Shown one piece after another: positions 5,417 through 37,070 of a stretch of DNA of 43,490 nt. The notes below the pieces were generated by a model that searched no databases, was not told the DNA's origin, and saw nothing but the letters and a program-made list of their open reading frames with translations. Made by a program: the position numbers and the translations under genes. Origin of the DNA: a virus (lineage: Duplodnaviria > Heunggongvirae > Uroviricota > Caudoviricetes); IMG/VR virus record IMGVR_UViG_2778261673_000008, positions 1-43,490 of that record. One strand, 5' to 3'. How positions within the stretch are numbered: position 1 is the stretch's first letter; each line of letters begins with the position of its first letter.

Positions 5417-5435
5417 AACTTGTTACCTCGGTCTG

Positions 5436-5569: not shown

Positions 5570-6154
5570 TTATTGTTTGTTTTTTTCGTTCTGGTTGATG
5601 ACAAATTCAATGTAACTTTCGATCTTTGCTTTCTCGGTTTCGGGTAACAATGCGTAGCGCGAGCGATCATAGTTGATGGTCGCAGGGTCGTGCGGGTGAA
5701 TCAGTAATTCATAGCCGTGACGCCCGAATGCGGATGCAACATTCTCCAGGGTGGAAATGGAAACGCTGACCTCATTGTTTAACAGGCGGCTGATTGTCAC
5801 CTGGGCTACGCCGGATGCGCGGTGAAGTTTTCCCTGTGTTGAAAGGTCGCGGCTTTCGCTCATCCAGCGTTCCAGGTTGTGAGCCGCCAGCTGGCCAATG
5901 TCGCTTGGGCCGACAGGCTGAAAACCTTCCTGAGAAAGCGAGCGATCGATATCAAGCCAGTTACGGGGTTTATTGGCGGCAGCTTCAATTTTTCGTGCAA
6001 CCTGGTCGCCGATAACCTTCTTGCCAAGAGCCCAGCGGTTTACCAGATTTGCCTGAGTTCCAAGTTTTTCAGCCATCCGCGTCTGAACACCATTGAATTC
6101 ACGGTCGATCAAGTCGTTGAGATTTTGCCTGCGGACGTCCTGGATACTTTTCAT
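5570..6154 (-). CDS. Phage repressor with two tandem XRE-type HTH domains, no S24 peptidase domain
   Basis: 194 aa; HTH-like segments near residues 25-65 and 110-160; divergent from the Cro-like gene with operators in between; own terminator. Confidence 0.7.
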   Translation of the reverse strand: MKSIQDVRRQNLNDLIDREFNGVQTRMAEKLGTQANLVNRWALGKKVIGDQVARKIEAAANKPRNWLDIDRSLSQEGFQPVGPSDIGQLAAHNLERWMSESRDLSTQGKLHRASGVAQVTISRLLNNEVSVSISTLENVASAFGRHGYELLIHPHDPATINYDRSRYALLPETEKAKIESYIEFVINQNEKNKQ

Positions 6155-6208: not shown

Positions 6209-6273
6209 ATTACCCAACAGGTAAATGCACCTCGTGGGTAACTATCCTTGATTTTTGTTACCTTATAGGTGAA
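6209..6273. promoter_or_regulatory. Right operator region between repressor and Cro-like gene (three sites)
   Basis: ATTACC CAACA GGTAAA (6209-6225), weaker GCACC TCGTG GGTAA (6227-6241), GTTACC TTATA GGTGAA (6257-6273). Confidence 0.55.
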
Positions 6274-6308
6274 TATTTATTATCTGAAATAAATATCAGG
6301 CAATAGCT

Positions 6309-14335: not shown

Positions 14336-14412
14336 TGGCGTGGCATGCAGGATTCGAACCTGCGACCAACCGCTTAGAAGGCGGTTGCTCTGTCCAACTG
14401 AGCTAATGCCAC
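14336..14412 (-). tRNA. tRNA-Arg (anticodon UCU), phage-encoded
   Basis: Hand-folded cloverleaf: acceptor GTGGCAT/ATGCCAC, D-arm GCTC/GAGC, anticodon stem ACCGC/GCGGT with loop CTTCTAA, T-arm GCAGG-TTCGAAT-CCTGC, encoded CCA. Confidence 0.85.
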
Positions 14413-23481: not shown

Positions 23482-24026
23482 TGTGCGATCCGGTTATTGC
23501 TGGTGGCGCAATGCTCGCCATGAGTGGCATTCAGGCATACACCCAGTACCAACAGGGAAAGTATGCCTCGAAGGTTGCAGAAGCGAACGCAGATATAGCC
23601 ACAGCTCAGGCAAATGATGCAATAAACAGAGGTAACGCTGAAGCTGAGCAACGGCGCAGAGAGACCCGACAGCGGCTTGGTACACAGGCGGCGACAATGG
23701 GGGCGACCGGCGCTGATTTATCTACAGGTAACGCGCTGGATATATTTGGTGACACTGCTCAGTTTGGCGCTCTTGATTCGCTAACGACGGTGAATAACGC
23801 GCAACGCGAGGCTTACGGTTATCAGGTTCAGGCTGCCAACTATAAAGCAGAAGCCAGTTCAGCCCGTAAACAGGGGAATGTGGGAGCAGCAACAACATTG
23901 CTCACTGCGCCTCTGAAGGCATACGGTGCGTACCAGATGCTTGGAGGGACATGGAGTCCGTTTACTCAAAGCACCCCTGCGCCAATCGGAGCAGCAGCAG
24001 GAACCAGATTACCCGGAGGATTATAA
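23481..24026 (+). CDS. Internal virion protein (gp14-like)
   Basis: 181 aa, Ala/Gln-rich, hydrophobic N-terminus; position before the large core proteins. Confidence 0.5.
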   Translation: MCDPVIAGGAMLAMSGIQAYTQYQQGKYASKVAEANADIATAQANDAINRGNAEAEQRRRETRQRLGTQAATMGATGADLSTGNALDIFGDTAQFGALDSLTTVNNAQREAYGYQVQAANYKAEASSARKQGNVGAATTLLTAPLKAYGAYQMLGGTWSPFTQSTPAPIGAAAGTRLPGGL

Positions 24027-32346: not shown

Positions 32347-33057
32347 TCAGAAGAACCCTGCTTTGTCGTTGATATACTCCGCGTGGGTCTGGATATCACG
32401 CAGGCATTTGCTCACACCGACAATGTAGCAGAACATGGTGGTCAGCTCCGCCGCCGCGCCCGATACATCATGCCCGTCGTCCTGCAACTGATTCAGCAGA
32501 TTCATCAGCAATGAGTTCTCCGTCAGGCCGAGAACACCAGACGGCGAATGAATCAGACTGCGGTAGCCGGGCTTCAGTGGGGCACTGTAGGTTTTGTTCT
32601 CTATCTTCATTGCCTGCATCACTGCTGACGCCGTGGCGTTGGCTACCTGGTCGGCAACCATCTTTATGCGTTCTTCCTGCGGGAACGAGTTTTTAATGTA
32701 GCTTCCTGTTCGACGGATCTGAGGAAGTACCTCACCTGTAACCCATTTACGAAAGCGGTAGGGGATAGTGCCTAGTGTCACTGCGTCGCGGCAGCGGAGG
32801 ATCAGTGTGTAGAGGCCTGACTCGGAGATGATGTTGATCTCTTTTACTCGGCTGTCAAAAATTGCACGATGTTCATGCCCTATGTTGAACATAGACCTTT
32901 CATCATCATCCAGTTTTTCAAGTGCTTGGGTGACGTTTTGGATACGCAGCGCACTACAAACGTCTTGGGCTACAAACCATGGTTGGCCATCGATAATGAT
33001 GGAACGGATAGGGTTAACAGATTCAAATTTGAAGATGGCAGTTTGAGCATTAGCCAT
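32347..33057 (-). CDS. Bro-N domain antirepressor-like protein
   Basis: Start taken at MANAQTAIFKFE (GGAG RBS); N-terminal IFKFESVNPIRSIIIDGQPWFVAQDVCSAL is a Bro-N signature; C-terminal domain is paralogous to ORF 34206-34463. Confidence 0.7.
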   Translation of the reverse strand: MANAQTAIFKFESVNPIRSIIIDGQPWFVAQDVCSALRIQNVTQALEKLDDDERSMFNIGHEHRAIFDSRVKEINIISESGLYTLILRCRDAVTLGTIPYRFRKWVTGEVLPQIRRTGSYIKNSFPQEERIKMVADQVANATASAVMQAMKIENKTYSAPLKPGYRSLIHSPSGVLGLTENSLLMNLLNQLQDDGHDVSGAAAELTTMFCYIVGVSKCLRDIQTHAEYINDKAGFF

Positions 33058-33325
33058 GGTGGTTATCTCCACTTAGTGATTTTAATCACCACCGCAACGC
33101 CAATTACTGGTGGTGAACTGGACAAGGTTGGCGTACCGGCCTAAGTGGTACCGGTGTCCTTTCGGACCCCTGCCCAGCCCACCATAATTCGGATATAGCT
33201 GTGCTTAACGCATAAAAAAACCACGTCTGGCGTGGTATGCGCCACTTAGTAACCCGGGACGCCAATCCCGGCACTGGATTTTGCCAGTGCCCGATTACTA
33301 TGGCACAAGAGGAGTGCGATGTAAA

Positions 33326-33435
33326 TTTACCGAAAAGGTAATGATAAGCGCGAATAAATATCAAAATCAACCGTATTTGGTTGATGGAGTTTAATGCTTG
33401 ATCACCTGAAAGCAAGATATTACCTTTAAGGTAAT
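33326..33435. promoter_or_regulatory. Two operator palindromes in the divergent region between Bro and the 33455 gene
   Basis: TTTACC GAAAA GGTAAT (33326-33342) and ATTACC TTTAA GGTAAT (33419-33435, 20 nt before the ATG). Confidence 0.5.
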
Positions 33436-33454: not shown

Positions 33455-34183
33455 ATGGAAGTTTTCTGGATAGTTGTTGGTGTGGTTGCGGTGATTATTT
33501 ACGTTATCAACCAGAACAAGACTAAGATCTCTGATCGTACGGTCGTAAATCATAACAAAACGATAAAGACCGAAGATGGGGAGATAACGATTAATCGTAC
33601 ACAGGTGATAGAACACACCTCTACTCAGTTTCAAAAAACTGGAGGTAATGCGCCTAATATTTCCGCACCTCCTGCTTATGATAGTGCGGTAATCCAGACA
33701 TATTATAAACAGCAGGAGTTAGCAAAAGAGAGGCAACTGATTCAGCCAAAGCCATTTACAGCAGAGCTTCCACCTGGAGTGTCAACGCGTCCGGCATATC
33801 ATGGAAGATTCCCTGGTGATGACACATCGTCTCAGTCATCTAAAAAAGCACCTCAGGCAGTATCAGAGCCAGCAAGAATACCTTCTGTATCGCCGCCAAA
33901 AGAAGAATCAGCTAACAGAGTTTCAAGTGGTAGCAAGCAGTGCTTGCGATGCAGAATAAACCTTCCATATGAAAAATTCAGGAAATCGTCAAAAAATCCA
34001 GATGGATTGACTAAGTGGTGTGCAAGGTGTCTCGATGGCCCAAAGAATACACGCCATATGAAGTGGTGCCCAATTTGTAATGTCCGCAGAAAACGAACCA
34101 GCTTTTACCCTAATAATCAAAATGCGGATGGTTTAATGGCATGGTGCAAAACGTGCTGGGATGAGCACAAAGCGAAACGATAG
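33455..34183 (+). CDS. Membrane-anchored protein with C-terminal tandem zinc-ribbon-like motifs
   Basis: N-terminal TM helix (VFWIVVGVVAVIIYVI), Pro/Ser-rich linker, two repeats of C-x2-C...DGL..WC-x2-C (CLRCRIN...DGLTKWCARC and CPICNV...DGLMAWCKTC). Confidence 0.5.
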   Translation: MEVFWIVVGVVAVIIYVINQNKTKISDRTVVNHNKTIKTEDGEITINRTQVIEHTSTQFQKTGGNAPNISAPPAYDSAVIQTYYKQQELAKERQLIQPKPFTAELPPGVSTRPAYHGRFPGDDTSSQSSKKAPQAVSEPARIPSVSPPKEESANRVSSGSKQCLRCRINLPYEKFRKSSKNPDGLTKWCARCLDGPKNTRHMKWCPICNVRRKRTSFYPNNQNADGLMAWCKTCWDEHKAKR

Positions 34184-34208
34184 GCCGCTCTTGCGGCCTT
34201 TAAATTTA
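34182..34208 (+). terminator. Terminator hairpin between convergent genes
   Basis: AGGCCGC-TCTT-GCGGCCT followed by TTTAAATTT. Confidence 0.55.
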
Positions 34209-34463
34209 CCGGGTTTGTTTTCGTAATTGTTCGGCACAATAGTCGAGATGTGTTTGCAGATCCCGCATAGACATCTGTGAGCTGGTGACGTAGTTAATCA
34301 GTGCAGTCAGTTCGGCAAGTGGGCCATCGACATTAAATCCATCCTTATCGAGATCCCGGAGTAATTTCATCAAGTGCGATCCCTCCACCAGTGACCTGAC
34401 GCCTCCCGGCGTGTGAATCCTTTCGGTAAATCCCTCTTCCAGTGGATAGTGATACTGCTGCAT
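34206..34463 (-). CDS. Small protein paralogous to the Bro C-terminal domain; candidate SOS-controlled antirepressor
   Basis: Start taken at MQQYHYPLEEGF (GGAG RBS); aligns with the Bro C-terminus (HTPGGVRSLVEGSHLMKLLRDLDKDGFNVDGPLAELT versus HSPSGVLGLTENSLLMNLLNQLQDDGHDVSGAAAELT); LexA box 22 bp upstream. Confidence 0.5.
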   Translation of the reverse strand: MQQYHYPLEEGFTERIHTPGGVRSLVEGSHLMKLLRDLDKDGFNVDGPLAELTALINYVTSSQMSMRDLQTHLDYCAEQLRKQTR

Positions 34464-34484
34464 CTTATCTTCTCCATGCAATAA

Positions 34485-34500
34485 CTGTATATTTATACAG
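34485..34500. promoter_or_regulatory. LexA (SOS) box
   Basis: AACTGTATATTTATACAGTAT matches CTGT-N8-ACAG and the TACTGTATATATATACAGTA consensus; lies in the promoter region of the 34206-34463 gene. Confidence 0.7.
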
Positions 34501-34548
34501 TATCAAATAATTTATTTGCTATCCAGCACGTTTTGAAAATTACCTGAA

Positions 34549-34565
34549 AGGTAATATCTGTTCGA
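34549..34565. promoter_or_regulatory. Operator palindrome ATTACC TGAAA GGTAAT upstream of the tailspike gene
   Basis: Identical to the site at 14734-14750; followed by CATATGTGGTT (34594-34604) and GGTAATAAAAT (34610-34620). Confidence 0.5.
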
Positions 34566-34658
34566 ATTCACAGTCTATCTATCCATATGTGGTTTTTCAG
34601 GTAATAAAATAACCGGATATGCGGCGCAACGGGTGCTGCGACTATCTGGAGATTTAAC

Positions 34659-37070
34659 ATGACGGTCTCAACCGAAGTCGACCATAACGACTACACAGGG
34701 AACGGCGTTACCACATCTTTCCCGTACACGTTCCGCATCTTCAAGAAGTCAGATCTCACCGTCCAGGTCGCTGACCTTAACGAAAATATTACGGTGCTGA
34801 CTCTGGATACCGATTACTCCGTTACCGGGGCGGGTACCTATTCTGGCGGGAATGTCGTGCTGATGTCACCGCTGGCCAACGGATGGCAGATTTCTATCTC
34901 GCGCGACCTCCCAGTTACCCAAGAGACTGACCTCCGTAACCAGGGGAAGTTCTTCGCAGAGGTCCATGAGGATGCGTTCGACAAGCTGACCATGCTTATC
35001 CAGCAGTGTTTCAGCTTTCTACGCCTGGCGCTGCGCAAGCCGTCGTTCATCGCGAACTATTATGACGCACTCAACAACCGCATTCGTAACCTTCGTGACC
35101 CGTCACAGGCGCAGGACGCAGCCACGAAGAATTATGTTGATGGGCAGATCGTTGACAACACCAATGCCTGGAAAGCTGGTGATGCCATTCTTGATCAGAA
35201 GATTGACAGTAATTTTGCGAGAACTCTACGGGTTCCAGAAAGCACTGTTGACCAACTAAGCCCGGTATCTGTTCGGAAAAACTCGTTGTTAGGATGGGAT
35301 AGCAACGGAAAGCCAATACCTGTTTTTTCGATGACAGATACAGCAGATCTCGCAATAAAGTTAGCATCTCATGAAGATGGTCTTGGTATGTCTTTGCTGG
35401 GCATGCCAGGGTCTGGATCTTTAAATCAACTTATTGGTAAGTGGACTTGTCCTGAGGCATGGGGCGTTATTACTGATTCCCAGCCAGACGCTCATGCTAA
35501 TTCTAAAAAAATGTTTAATATGTTTGAGTGGTTACGATCTTTAGGTGGCGGTGTAGCATATTTCACACCAGGTAAAACCTATTGGATTGATTTTATTCAG
35601 TTCGTACCCAGCAATGTTGTAATTATAGGATATGGGGCTACGGTAAAACAGATAAACCCATTGTCAATGTATGGTCGTGGTGGTTTCGTTTTTGGGAGTG
35701 GCAGAGAATGGAACTATAAAAAAGCAAAAGCGGCATACAATTCCGGTAATTACCCGTCTTCCGTTGCTGATTCTACGATGGCAGAGTTACCACTGAAATC
35801 TTACCTGAGAGATAATCAGTCTTATGTTCAGTGTGAGAAATGTAAAGTTTATGGCTTGCGCATGTCTGCAGTGTTTACTGATTCCAGCTATTGGGGAGGC
35901 TATGCATTTAATTGTGTTAATGCACAGCATATAAGATTTTTCGATGTGGTTGGTGATGGTTGGACTCAATTGTTTAACTTTGGTAACGATAGTTCTTCCT
36001 CTTCTCCATCTTGTTATGATGTAATTGCAAAAGGTGCTACCGTTGAAAAGGCGGATCTTGTTCGCACTTATTATGCATTTGGTTTTATTGCAAACTCAAC
36101 AGATTGCTGGATTGAAGATTGTGATCTACTTAAGCCTATGACTGCCGGAACTATTAATGGTTCAGGAGCTGCTACAAACTTTGTAGAAAACTGTGGGTTT
36201 AAAGATTTACGAGCTGCAAAATTAGGTCGTACAGTATCTTCGGAGATGGTTCTATTAAATAATGCAAAAGGCTGTCTTGTTGAGAATATAGATGTTGGTG
36301 ACTGCATTAATGGTGTAGCCACCTACTATACTGATGATTCATATAATGATGCTAACATGCCGAATATTATAAGAAACATTTCTGCATCAGCTGATAATGT
36401 TGTCGCTCTTCGTGCAAAATACTCTGTTATTGATGCATTTCATGGTAAGGGGGCATACATAAATGAGTTGTATTTCGCAAATAATAACGCAAGCGGAAAC
36501 AAAATAAATAAAAACCCTAAATCTATAGGCTTTGGTGGCACAAACCTGCAATCATGGTTTTTAACCAATAATACTGTTCTTGGTTGGTTCAGAAGATATT
36601 TTTATTTAAGACCATCAGAAATAATTCTGAACGACAAAGCAGACACATTATCATGGACATTTAACAAATTAGTATCAACAAAAAACGGTGTTGATCTTTA
36701 CTTCATGTGGAGGGTTCCAGATGATATAAAAGCTATTGATGATATAAGAGCTTTTATAAGATTTAACATTTCACCTGATCAGAATGCAGCAGCAGCAGGA
36801 TCTACTGTTGAAGCAAGTTTAATTCAGATGATATCGTTTGACGGAGATATAAATACAGATCCTTACACGGCGTTTTCTAATTCAAAAGTTGCTACATCTG
36901 GAGTTGAAAACACTACAATAGTAACTCAAATGGGGTCAACTGCCCCTGGCTTTGTAAAAATGGCAGATGAAACACATGGACTTGCATATAGTTGGTATGT
37001 GTTATTTAAAATGACACATAACGTAAATAACAATTATATGAAAGAAATCAGAATAGCGGGGTATAATTAA
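34659..37070 (+). CDS. Tailspike / tail fibre protein
   Basis: 803 aa; N-terminal segment of phage-typical GC content, then a long AT-rich C-terminal part with beta-rich N/G/S/T/Y composition. Confidence 0.7.
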   Translation: MTVSTEVDHNDYTGNGVTTSFPYTFRIFKKSDLTVQVADLNENITVLTLDTDYSVTGAGTYSGGNVVLMSPLANGWQISISRDLPVTQETDLRNQGKFFAEVHEDAFDKLTMLIQQCFSFLRLALRKPSFIANYYDALNNRIRNLRDPSQAQDAATKNYVDGQIVDNTNAWKAGDAILDQKIDSNFARTLRVPESTVDQLSPVSVRKNSLLGWDSNGKPIPVFSMTDTADLAIKLASHEDGLGMSLLGMPGSGSLNQLIGKWTCPEAWGVITDSQPDAHANSKKMFNMFEWLRSLGGGVAYFTPGKTYWIDFIQFVPSNVVIIGYGATVKQINPLSMYGRGGFVFGSGREWNYKKAKAAYNSGNYPSSVADSTMAELPLKSYLRDNQSYVQCEKCKVYGLRMSAVFTDSSYWGGYAFNCVNAQHIRFFDVVGDGWTQLFNFGNDSSSSSPSCYDVIAKGATVEKADLVRTYYAFGFIANSTDCWIEDCDLLKPMTAGTINGSGAATNFVENCGFKDLRAAKLGRTVSSEMVLLNNAKGCLVENIDVGDCINGVATYYTDDSYNDANMPNIIRNISASADNVVALRAKYSVIDAFHGKGAYINELYFANNNASGNKINKNPKSIGFGGTNLQSWFLTNNTVLGWFRRYFYLRPSEIILNDKADTLSWTFNKLVSTKNGVDLYFMWRVPDDIKAIDDIRAFIRFNISPDQNAAAAGSTVEASLIQMISFDGDINTDPYTAFSNSKVATSGVENTTIVTQMGSTAPGFVKMADETHGLAYSWYVLFKMTHNVNNNYMKEIRIAGYN

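Follow-up and report, generated by a model that had tools for sequence, protein, structure and literature searches.

A probable Escherichia coli Uetakevirus orthologue of the LexA-gated Ant-Rep lytic switch of phage SPC32H

The locus described here, which combines a small gene with a LexA box in front of it, very probably corresponds, in E. coli Uetakeviruses of the phiV10/TL-2011b type, to the Ant-Rep-LexA lytic switch of Salmonella phage SPC32H, as its orthologue. The window, by which we mean the whole stretch of 43,490 nucleotides analysed, is an E. coli prophage of the genus Uetakevirus, similar to the podophages epsilon15 and phiV10. A sequence-only reading of the window had proposed a small antirepressor, derepressed in the SOS response and directed against a repressor which is not itself cleavable. 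This proposal is supported by the homology of the two proteins to the pair in PDB entry 5D50 and by the conservation of the box, and further by a nucleotide difference between SPC32H and SPC32N which falls within the box. That the Ant family counters a non-cleavable repressor under LexA control is already known (2013; structure 2016); the proposal was correct, and as the SPC32H Ant/Rep/LexA switch has been published it was not new.

The ant gene and its product

The ant gene is located at 34206-34463 on the minus strand, with its ATG at 34463 and the stop codon, included in these coordinates, ending at 34206. It encodes a small antirepressor of 85 amino acids, i.e. 86 codons with the stop, in place of the 86 residues given in the sequence-only reading. 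Six nt before the ATG a Shine-Dalgarno sequence GGAGAA can be read from the sequence (34475-34470, minus strand), the GGAGA of which is kept in the six aligned phages from E. coli, Salmonella and Enterobacter and not in the four Klebsiella phages.

By sequence comparison the gene at 34206-34463 is the orthologue of SPC32H Ant. In tblastn its product is 88% identical over the full length to SPC32H_020 (KC911856), annotated as "ant: anti-repressor protein", and chain E of PDB 5D50, "Anti-repressor protein", matches its residues 2-84 with an E value of 6e-47. The orthologues are named ant in SPC32H and SPC32N, gp19 in epsilon15 and gp24 in phiV10, and the identity to phiV10p24 is 97.6%. A tblastn search of phage genomes found Ant homologues in 35 phage records. 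Those of E. coli phages are 96-99% identical, those of Salmonella phages 84-88%, those of Enterobacter phages 78-84% and those of Klebsiella phages 61-66%.

For Ant no Pfam or NCBIfam family scored above threshold, and a match to DUF724 was set aside as being below threshold. PHROG 450, labelled "unknown function", matches Ant (E 8e-48) and also the Bro-N protein encoded nearby in the window, and Ant in turn matches the C-terminal end of PHROG 1760, labelled "anti-repressor". The protein had been described earlier as carrying a Bro-C domain. This label is only loosely right, in that Ant and the C-terminal approximately 80 amino acids (residues ~158-239) of the Bro-N protein share about 40% identity; no match to a Bro-C domain was found for Ant in the domain libraries searched.

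The LexA box and the predicted ant promoter

The sequence AACTGTATATTTATACAGTA at 34483-34502 (no strand assigned; TACTGTATAAATATACAGTT on the ant strand) is a putative LexA (SOS) box. It departs from the LexA consensus TACTGTATATATATACAGTA by 2 mismatches and is the sole match at up to 3 mismatches in the 43.5-kb window, with 0 matches expected in shuffled sequence for a site of this type. The CTGT-N8-ACAG core of the box spans 34485-34500; the bare core is present in four copies in the window, this one being the only copy with an AT-rich spacer. The box was also scored with a rough weight matrix, which was made from 20 E. coli SOS boxes and gives approximate scores. It reached 27.1 bits, exceeding every training site, and the second-ranked site of the window scored 11.9 bits, equal to the mean maximum of shuffled sequences (11.8). 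The near-consensus character ascribed to the box is confirmed by these data, and E. coli LexA would be expected to bind it. The box is separated from the ant ATG by 19 nt, and its CTGT core by 21 nt, in place of the 22 bp noted previously.

Two other candidates were rejected as LexA sites. The CTGT-N8-ACAG at 34558-34573 scored 9.6 bits, which is in the chance range, and was discarded because its CTGT half is missing in TL-2011b, phiV10 and the other aligned phages; the sequence CTGAAATAAATATCAG in the rep-cro region (6284-6299) scored -0.8 bits.

The ant promoter is predicted at 34497-34525 (minus strand), with a -35 hexamer TGGATA at 34525-34520 and a -10 hexamer TACTGT at 34502-34497, the latter coinciding with the box's left half. 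A spacer of 17 nt is predicted, ending in TGA (34505-34503), as in an extended -10 promoter. Upstream of the box the blocks CTGGA(T/A)A and TGnTA are conserved in both intergenic alignments described below. A strict sigma-70 consensus scan of 34100-34700 found no promoter, and the proposed hexamers match 7 of the 12 consensus positions, plus the extended TG; since the strict scan was empty, the model is built on conservation and on the analogy with promoter p95 of phage 186, from which we infer the exact hexamers. The predicted start site is inside the LexA box, so that bound LexA would exclude RNA polymerase.

Divergent from ant is the tailspike or tail fibre gene (34659-37070, plus strand), a synteny common to the window, SPC32H, epsilon15 and phiV10. 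As the box is situated within the shared 195-bp divergent intergenic region (34464-34658), it could in principle govern mainly the tailspike or serotype-conversion unit and not ant. We give this a very low probability, since the box is 19 nt from the ATG of ant versus 156 nt from that of the tailspike gene, overlaps a conserved TGn-TACTGT element reading toward ant, and is separated from the tailspike gene by an operator-like palindrome and by conserved blocks.

Conservation of the box

Escherichia phage TL-2011b matches the region at 97% identity, and for the ant-tailspike part phiV10 and a dozen further E. coli Uetakeviruses reach 95-97%. In a first alignment of the ant-tailspike intergenic region, comprising the window, TL-2011b, phiV10, SPC32H, SPC32N and epsilon15, the box TACTGT-N8-ACAGT occupies the same columns in all six sequences, where it directly precedes a conserved GCATGGAGAAG-N5-ATG. 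A second alignment, to which Enterobacter and Klebsiella phages were added, contains 10 sequences with 74% mean column identity; here the half-sites of the box are conserved blocks and the flanks diverge. The four Klebsiella phages carry a 3-mismatch box with ATGT for CTGT in the left half, scoring 17-18 bits with the rough matrix.

SPC32H and its hyper-lytic sibling SPC32N show 2 differences in genomes of 38,689 nt. One is a C>A change in SPC32N, in the ACAG half of the ant LexA box, which drops the score from 24.9 to 18.3 with the rough matrix; the other is within the tailspike gene. Kim and Ryu, in 2013, reportedly also described the two phages as being two nucleotides apart. In their work Rep is said to remain uncleaved in the SOS response and to be inactivated by the small, LexA-repressed Ant, and the exchange of one nucleotide in the LexA site, which overlaps the ant promoter, reportedly led to constitutive Ant and to the lytic SPC32N. 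A review attributes the series of SOS response, LexA self-cleavage and antirepressor synthesis to Kim & Ryu 2013 (PMC7380047).

These comparisons bear on the alternative that the palindrome at 34483-34502 serves a phage-encoded regulator, be it Rep, Cro or a late activator, as operator, or is an AT-rich inverted repeat present by chance in a promoter region. The same intergenic region does hold other phage regulatory palindromes, such as that at 34539-34555; however, the dispersed palindrome of the phage differs in sequence, and the one at 34483-34502 is unique in the window and closer to the LexA consensus than are the E. coli SOS boxes with which it was compared. Its CTGT and ACAG halves are exactly the parts conserved across hosts, a single change in ACAG separates SPC32N from SPC32H, and the epsilon15 box is the very 20-mer which the phage 186 record marks at p95 as a putative LexA site. 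The probability left to this alternative is negligible.

Of 5,426 complete E. coli genomes, 531 (approximately 10%) contain the 455-bp stretch of ant plus intergenic region, nearly always on the chromosome. One copy is 100% identical, and most of the 531 genomes have ant and an intact box at 95-99% identity. The E. coli phage vB_EcoP_ZX5 carries a Rep 100% identical and an ant 97.6% identical to those of the window, with an identical LexA box, and its titre rises from 1e7 to 1e9 PFU/mL under mitomycin C (PMC9782041).

The repressor and its putative operators

The prophage repressor Rep, the presumed target of Ant, is a protein of 194 amino acids with two HTH-type domains, encoded by rep at 5570-6154 on the minus strand. 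It is the one homologue in the window found with SPC32H Rep as query, with 42% identity over the full length (53% in the N-terminal and 38% in the C-terminal domain). PDB 5D50_A, "Repressor", matches its residues 1-190 (E 4e-42), and the C-terminal fragment structure 5D4Z also gives a match (E 4e-20). The repressors of phiV10, vB_EcoP_ZX5 and other phages are 100% identical to it.

In Pfam the protein matches HTH families only (HTH_3, HTH_26 and similar), with no Peptidase S24 domain at E<=1, and a search of the whole window for S24 repressors (tblastn with N15 CB and E. coli LexA) returned nothing significant. This bears out the earlier statement that the main repressor is devoid of an S24 peptidase domain and, in the classical sense, supports the view that it cannot be RecA-cleaved; lacking the S24 autocleavage domain, Rep would be unable to sense RecA* itself.

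The ~35 phage records in which the Rep family is found are the same as those with Ant. When the E. coli and Salmonella lineages are compared, the identity is 42% for Rep and 88% for Ant, so that a cognate fit of Ant and Rep is not guaranteed; we assume that the Ant of the window would still fit the Rep of the window. For the SPC32H pair, Rep is described as binding DNA in the form of a tetramer, which is broken up when a tetramer of Ant engages two Rep dimers (PMC9638917).

The dispersed palindrome ATTACC-N5-GGTAAT occurs, at up to 2 mismatches, in 16 copies in the window versus 1.2 expected, nearly all of them outside long ORFs. A perfect copy is found at 34539-34555 (no strand assigned) in the ant-tailspike interval, 36 bp upstream of the LexA box. 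Other copies are at 6209 in the rep-cro intergenic region, at 5435 and 5497 downstream of rep, and at 33326 and 33419 upstream of isrK. SPC32H has 18 copies, three of which are in its rep-cro interval and one in its ant-tailspike interval, and in the epsilon15 record the equivalent ant-tailspike palindrome is labelled "repressor / lysogeny". The half-sites (ATTACC...GGTAA) of this copy are kept in 10 of 10 aligned phages, bar one base in phiV10 (GGTGA). The palindrome is a probable operator of Rep and Cro. Should Rep use it as its operator, control by Rep may extend to ant and to the Bro-N unit, in addition to that by LexA or RNA, and induction would be self-reinforcing.

The Bro-N gene next to ant

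At 32347-33057 on the minus strand, 1.1 kb from ant, there is a second antirepressor-like gene, a paralogue of ant, encoding a 236 amino acid protein with a Bro-N domain (PF02498, 1e-19) and an Ant-like C-terminal domain. The N-terminal domain is 43% identical to that of N15 AntC (E 7e-44), and the protein is 80% identical to ORF4 of ZX5, annotated as "anti-repressor". Directly upstream of the gene are, on the same strand, the C4 antisense RNA (33106-33189; 63.6 bits) and the isrK RNA (33214-33290; 67.7 bits), both above the Rfam gathering threshold. The isrK/C4 pair is present also in ZX5, TL-2011b and phiV10. In ZX5 and phiV10 the ant gene directly adjoins the isrK-C4-BroN unit and has the same orientation, whereas in TL-2011b and the window the two are set apart by a stretch on the opposite strand. 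In the window this stretch is intact as a 242-aa Cys-rich ORF (33455-34183, opposite strand to ant) with its own terminator.

Over-expression of ZX5 ORF4 cut the prophage titre from 1e9 to 1e6 and lowered lysogeny, and the study credits antirepressor activity to this Bro-N protein with no mention of the small Ant or of SPC32H (PMC9782041). The inducer of the E. coli lineage could accordingly be the Bro-N/Ant-like protein (32347-33057), with the small Ant being redundant or aimed at the repressors of co-resident prophages. In addition to the ORF4 experiment, the Ant-like C-terminal domain which the Bro-N protein itself possesses, the divergence of Rep (42%) while Ant stayed at 88%, and the crosstalk of antirepressors documented among Gifsy prophages (PMC7380047) speak for such a role. 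We nevertheless hold it to be improbable. Core and matrix scans found no LexA box before the Bro-N gene or its isrK/C4 leader, so that the Bro-N protein alone cannot explain SOS induction, and the small ant gene with an intact box is maintained at 95-99% identity in the majority of the 531 genomes of E. coli which contain it. Every phage record with Ant also has this Rep family, and SPC32H is without a Bro-N gene beside ant and has no other antirepressor annotated.

Proposed mechanism and annotation

In the preferred reading, the orthologue of the SPC32H switch, host LexA would occupy 34483-34502 in the lysogen and Rep would hold the lytic genes off; ant would be silent since the LexA-bound box overlaps its -10 region and start site. 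DNA damage would lead to LexA self-cleavage and to transcription of ant, upon which the 85-aa Ant would bind Rep, break the DNA-binding tetramer and free the operators, resulting in prophage induction.

An extension of this switch, for which we see a modest chance at best, is a two-tier antirepression circuit in E. coli Uetakeviruses, with the LexA-gated Ant acting first and the isrK-C4-BroN unit, flanked by Rep operators, acting second. Loss of Rep would open the latter unit, and the Ant-like C-terminus of its product would presumably bind Rep. The Rep-type operator at 34539-34555 would place the ant promoter region within the circuit as well, and in phiV10 and ZX5, where the two units adjoin, they could even form one LexA-started transcript. 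If such a circuit existed, induction would be a self-reinforcing and irreversible commitment and not a simple LexA relay.

The recognition of ant explains the SOS-inducibility of these common prophages, which alter the O-antigen and some of which reside in O157 and further STEC strains. The gene is labelled "hypothetical protein" in the E. coli genome and phage records listed. With no Pfam or NCBIfam model and a PHROG of "unknown function", this constitutes an annotation gap, and ant was overlooked in the experimental study of the near-identical E. coli phage ZX5 (PMC9782041). As a separate observation, the Bro-N antirepressor behind isrK/C4, the palindrome copy by the ant promoter and the "hypothetical" label are less well described than the switch.

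Comparison with known systems

The layout of isrK, C4 and the Bro-N gene in the window, as distinct from ant, resembles P1 immI (c4-icd-ant). It likewise resembles isrK-orf45-anrP of Gifsy-1, where IsrK activates translation of the antirepressor-like AnrP (PMC4825925). In distinction to both, the Bro-N protein of the window has an Ant-like C-terminus. Its gene, unlike ant, is without LexA control.

Tum of phage 186 is similar to Ant in that a LexA box covers the promoter of a small antirepressor and the repressor (CI) is not RecA-cleaved. In the phage 186 record the LexA-repressed tum promoter p95 has the -10 TACTGT as the left half of the annotated putative LexA site TACTGTATGTTTATACAGTA, the layout predicted for ant, and the ant box of epsilon15 is the same 20-mer. 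The two proteins have no detectable similarity (BLASTP E 0.25, 13/47 identities); Tum has 146 amino acids with a DinI-like part, and phage 186 belongs to the Peduoviridae and has a different repressor. For AntC of N15 (antABC operon) there is again no detectable similarity to Ant (BLASTP E 1.4). AntC has 264 amino acids and a Bro-N domain, which Ant does not have, and is a functional analogue of Ant only; the N15 repressor CB is, according to its record, of the LexA family (S24), unlike the Rep of the window.

The closest system is the switch of SPC32H, for the Ant/Rep pair of which a structure was reportedly presented by Kim et al. in 2016. SPC32H is of the same genus, Uetakevirus, its Ant is 88% identical, and its Rep is a full-length homologue without S24. 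Its LexA box aligns column for column with that of the window, at the same place relative to the Shine-Dalgarno sequence and the ATG, and the divergence of ant and tailspike gene and the operator-like palindrome in the intergenic region are shared as well. The systems differ in Rep, which is only 42% identical, and in the host, which is Salmonella for SPC32H and E. coli for the window. SPC32H is also without the 3.2 kb found beside ant in the window, with the Bro-N/Ant-like gene, isrK, C4, a zinc-ribbon ORF and others, its ant being adjoined directly by a virion gene. The comparison with Tum and AntC, which the sequence-only reading had drawn, therefore holds for function and not for descent: these are analogues, and the true relative of the locus is the SPC32H switch.

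The ant gene and its intergenic region

The small antirepressor gene ant (34206-34463, minus strand) represents an annotation gap, despite its Salmonella orthologue having been both characterised and crystallised. The region containing it (34206-34660) is found in 531 of the 5,426 complete E. coli genomes, and in the matches listed, whether genomes or phages of E. coli, ant is annotated as "hypothetical protein". There is no model for it in Pfam or NCBIfam, and its PHROG family is marked as of unknown function. From the E. coli to the Salmonella lineage, Ant has diverged much less than the prophage repressor Rep (5570-6154, minus strand): the Ant proteins are 88% identical, the Rep proteins only 42% (53% in the N-terminal and 38% in the C-terminal domain). 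Two explanations are offered: what Ant recognises is a small patch on Rep that has stayed conserved, or the immunity region has been swapped independently of ant.

The region between ant and the divergent tailspike gene carries a second copy of the motif CTGT-N8-ACAG (CTGTTCGAATTCACAG, 34558-34573). This is probably not a LexA site, since its score of 9.6 bits is in the chance range and its CTGT half is not found in TL-2011b, phiV10 or the other aligned phages.

The C4/isrK/Bro-N unit

A C4 antisense RNA and an isrK RNA, both above the Rfam gathering score, are located at 33106-33290 on the minus strand, directly upstream of the gene for a Bro-N protein (32347-33057, minus strand). By sequence comparison, this protein has an N-terminal domain like that of N15 AntC, and its C-terminal 80 or so amino acids resemble the small Ant. 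The unit is predicted to be a second antirepressor module, of the same type as isrK-anrP of Gifsy-1 and immI of P1. The unit has no LexA box. The homologue in phage ZX5, 80% identical to the Bro-N protein of the window, reduces lysogeny when over-expressed (PMC9782041).

In ZX5 (L016, 2601-3869) and phiV10 (L002, 3104-4258) ant, isrK, C4 and the Bro-N gene lie side by side in one orientation, and it is therefore conceivable that in these two phages a LexA-controlled promoter reads through into the second antirepressor unit. In the window this adjacency is interrupted by an inserted ORF of 242 amino acids on the opposite strand (33455-34183, plus), with a terminator-like hairpin at 34182-34199, whereas phiV10 and ZX5 have no gene between ant and isrK. 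The ORF product matches PHROG 6762 (unknown function), has four CxxC-type motifs, all in its C-terminal third, and gives weak matches to Stc1 and to an endonuclease VII-like zinc-ribbon. The equivalent stretch is present in TL-2011b, labelled only "similar to hypothetical protein".

The antisense RNA of the P22 ant region is sar. The related phage TL-2011b (L001, 774-841, minus strand) has a match to sar marginally above the Rfam gathering score; the Rfam scan of the window gave none.

Dispersed palindromes and tRNA

The palindrome ATTACC-N5-GGTAAT, allowing up to two mismatches, occurs at 16 sites in the window against 1.2 expected. The 17-mers are at 5435, 5497, 6209, 6594, 8540, 8602, 11197, 11215, 14117, 14734, 32266, 33326, 33419 and 34539, and two sites with two mismatches, at 24008 and 35800, are within genes. 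Nearly all are intergenic, including those in the rep-cro and ant-tailspike regions, and in epsilon15 one copy is annotated as a repressor site. The palindrome is probably the Rep/Cro operator; if so, Rep-controlled promoters would be distributed genome-wide, with one beside ant. A tRNA-Arg (anticodon TCT) was detected by both ARAGORN and Rfam at 14336-14412 on the minus strand. In SPC32H the palindromes are dispersed likewise, and a tRNA-Arg is annotated there too.
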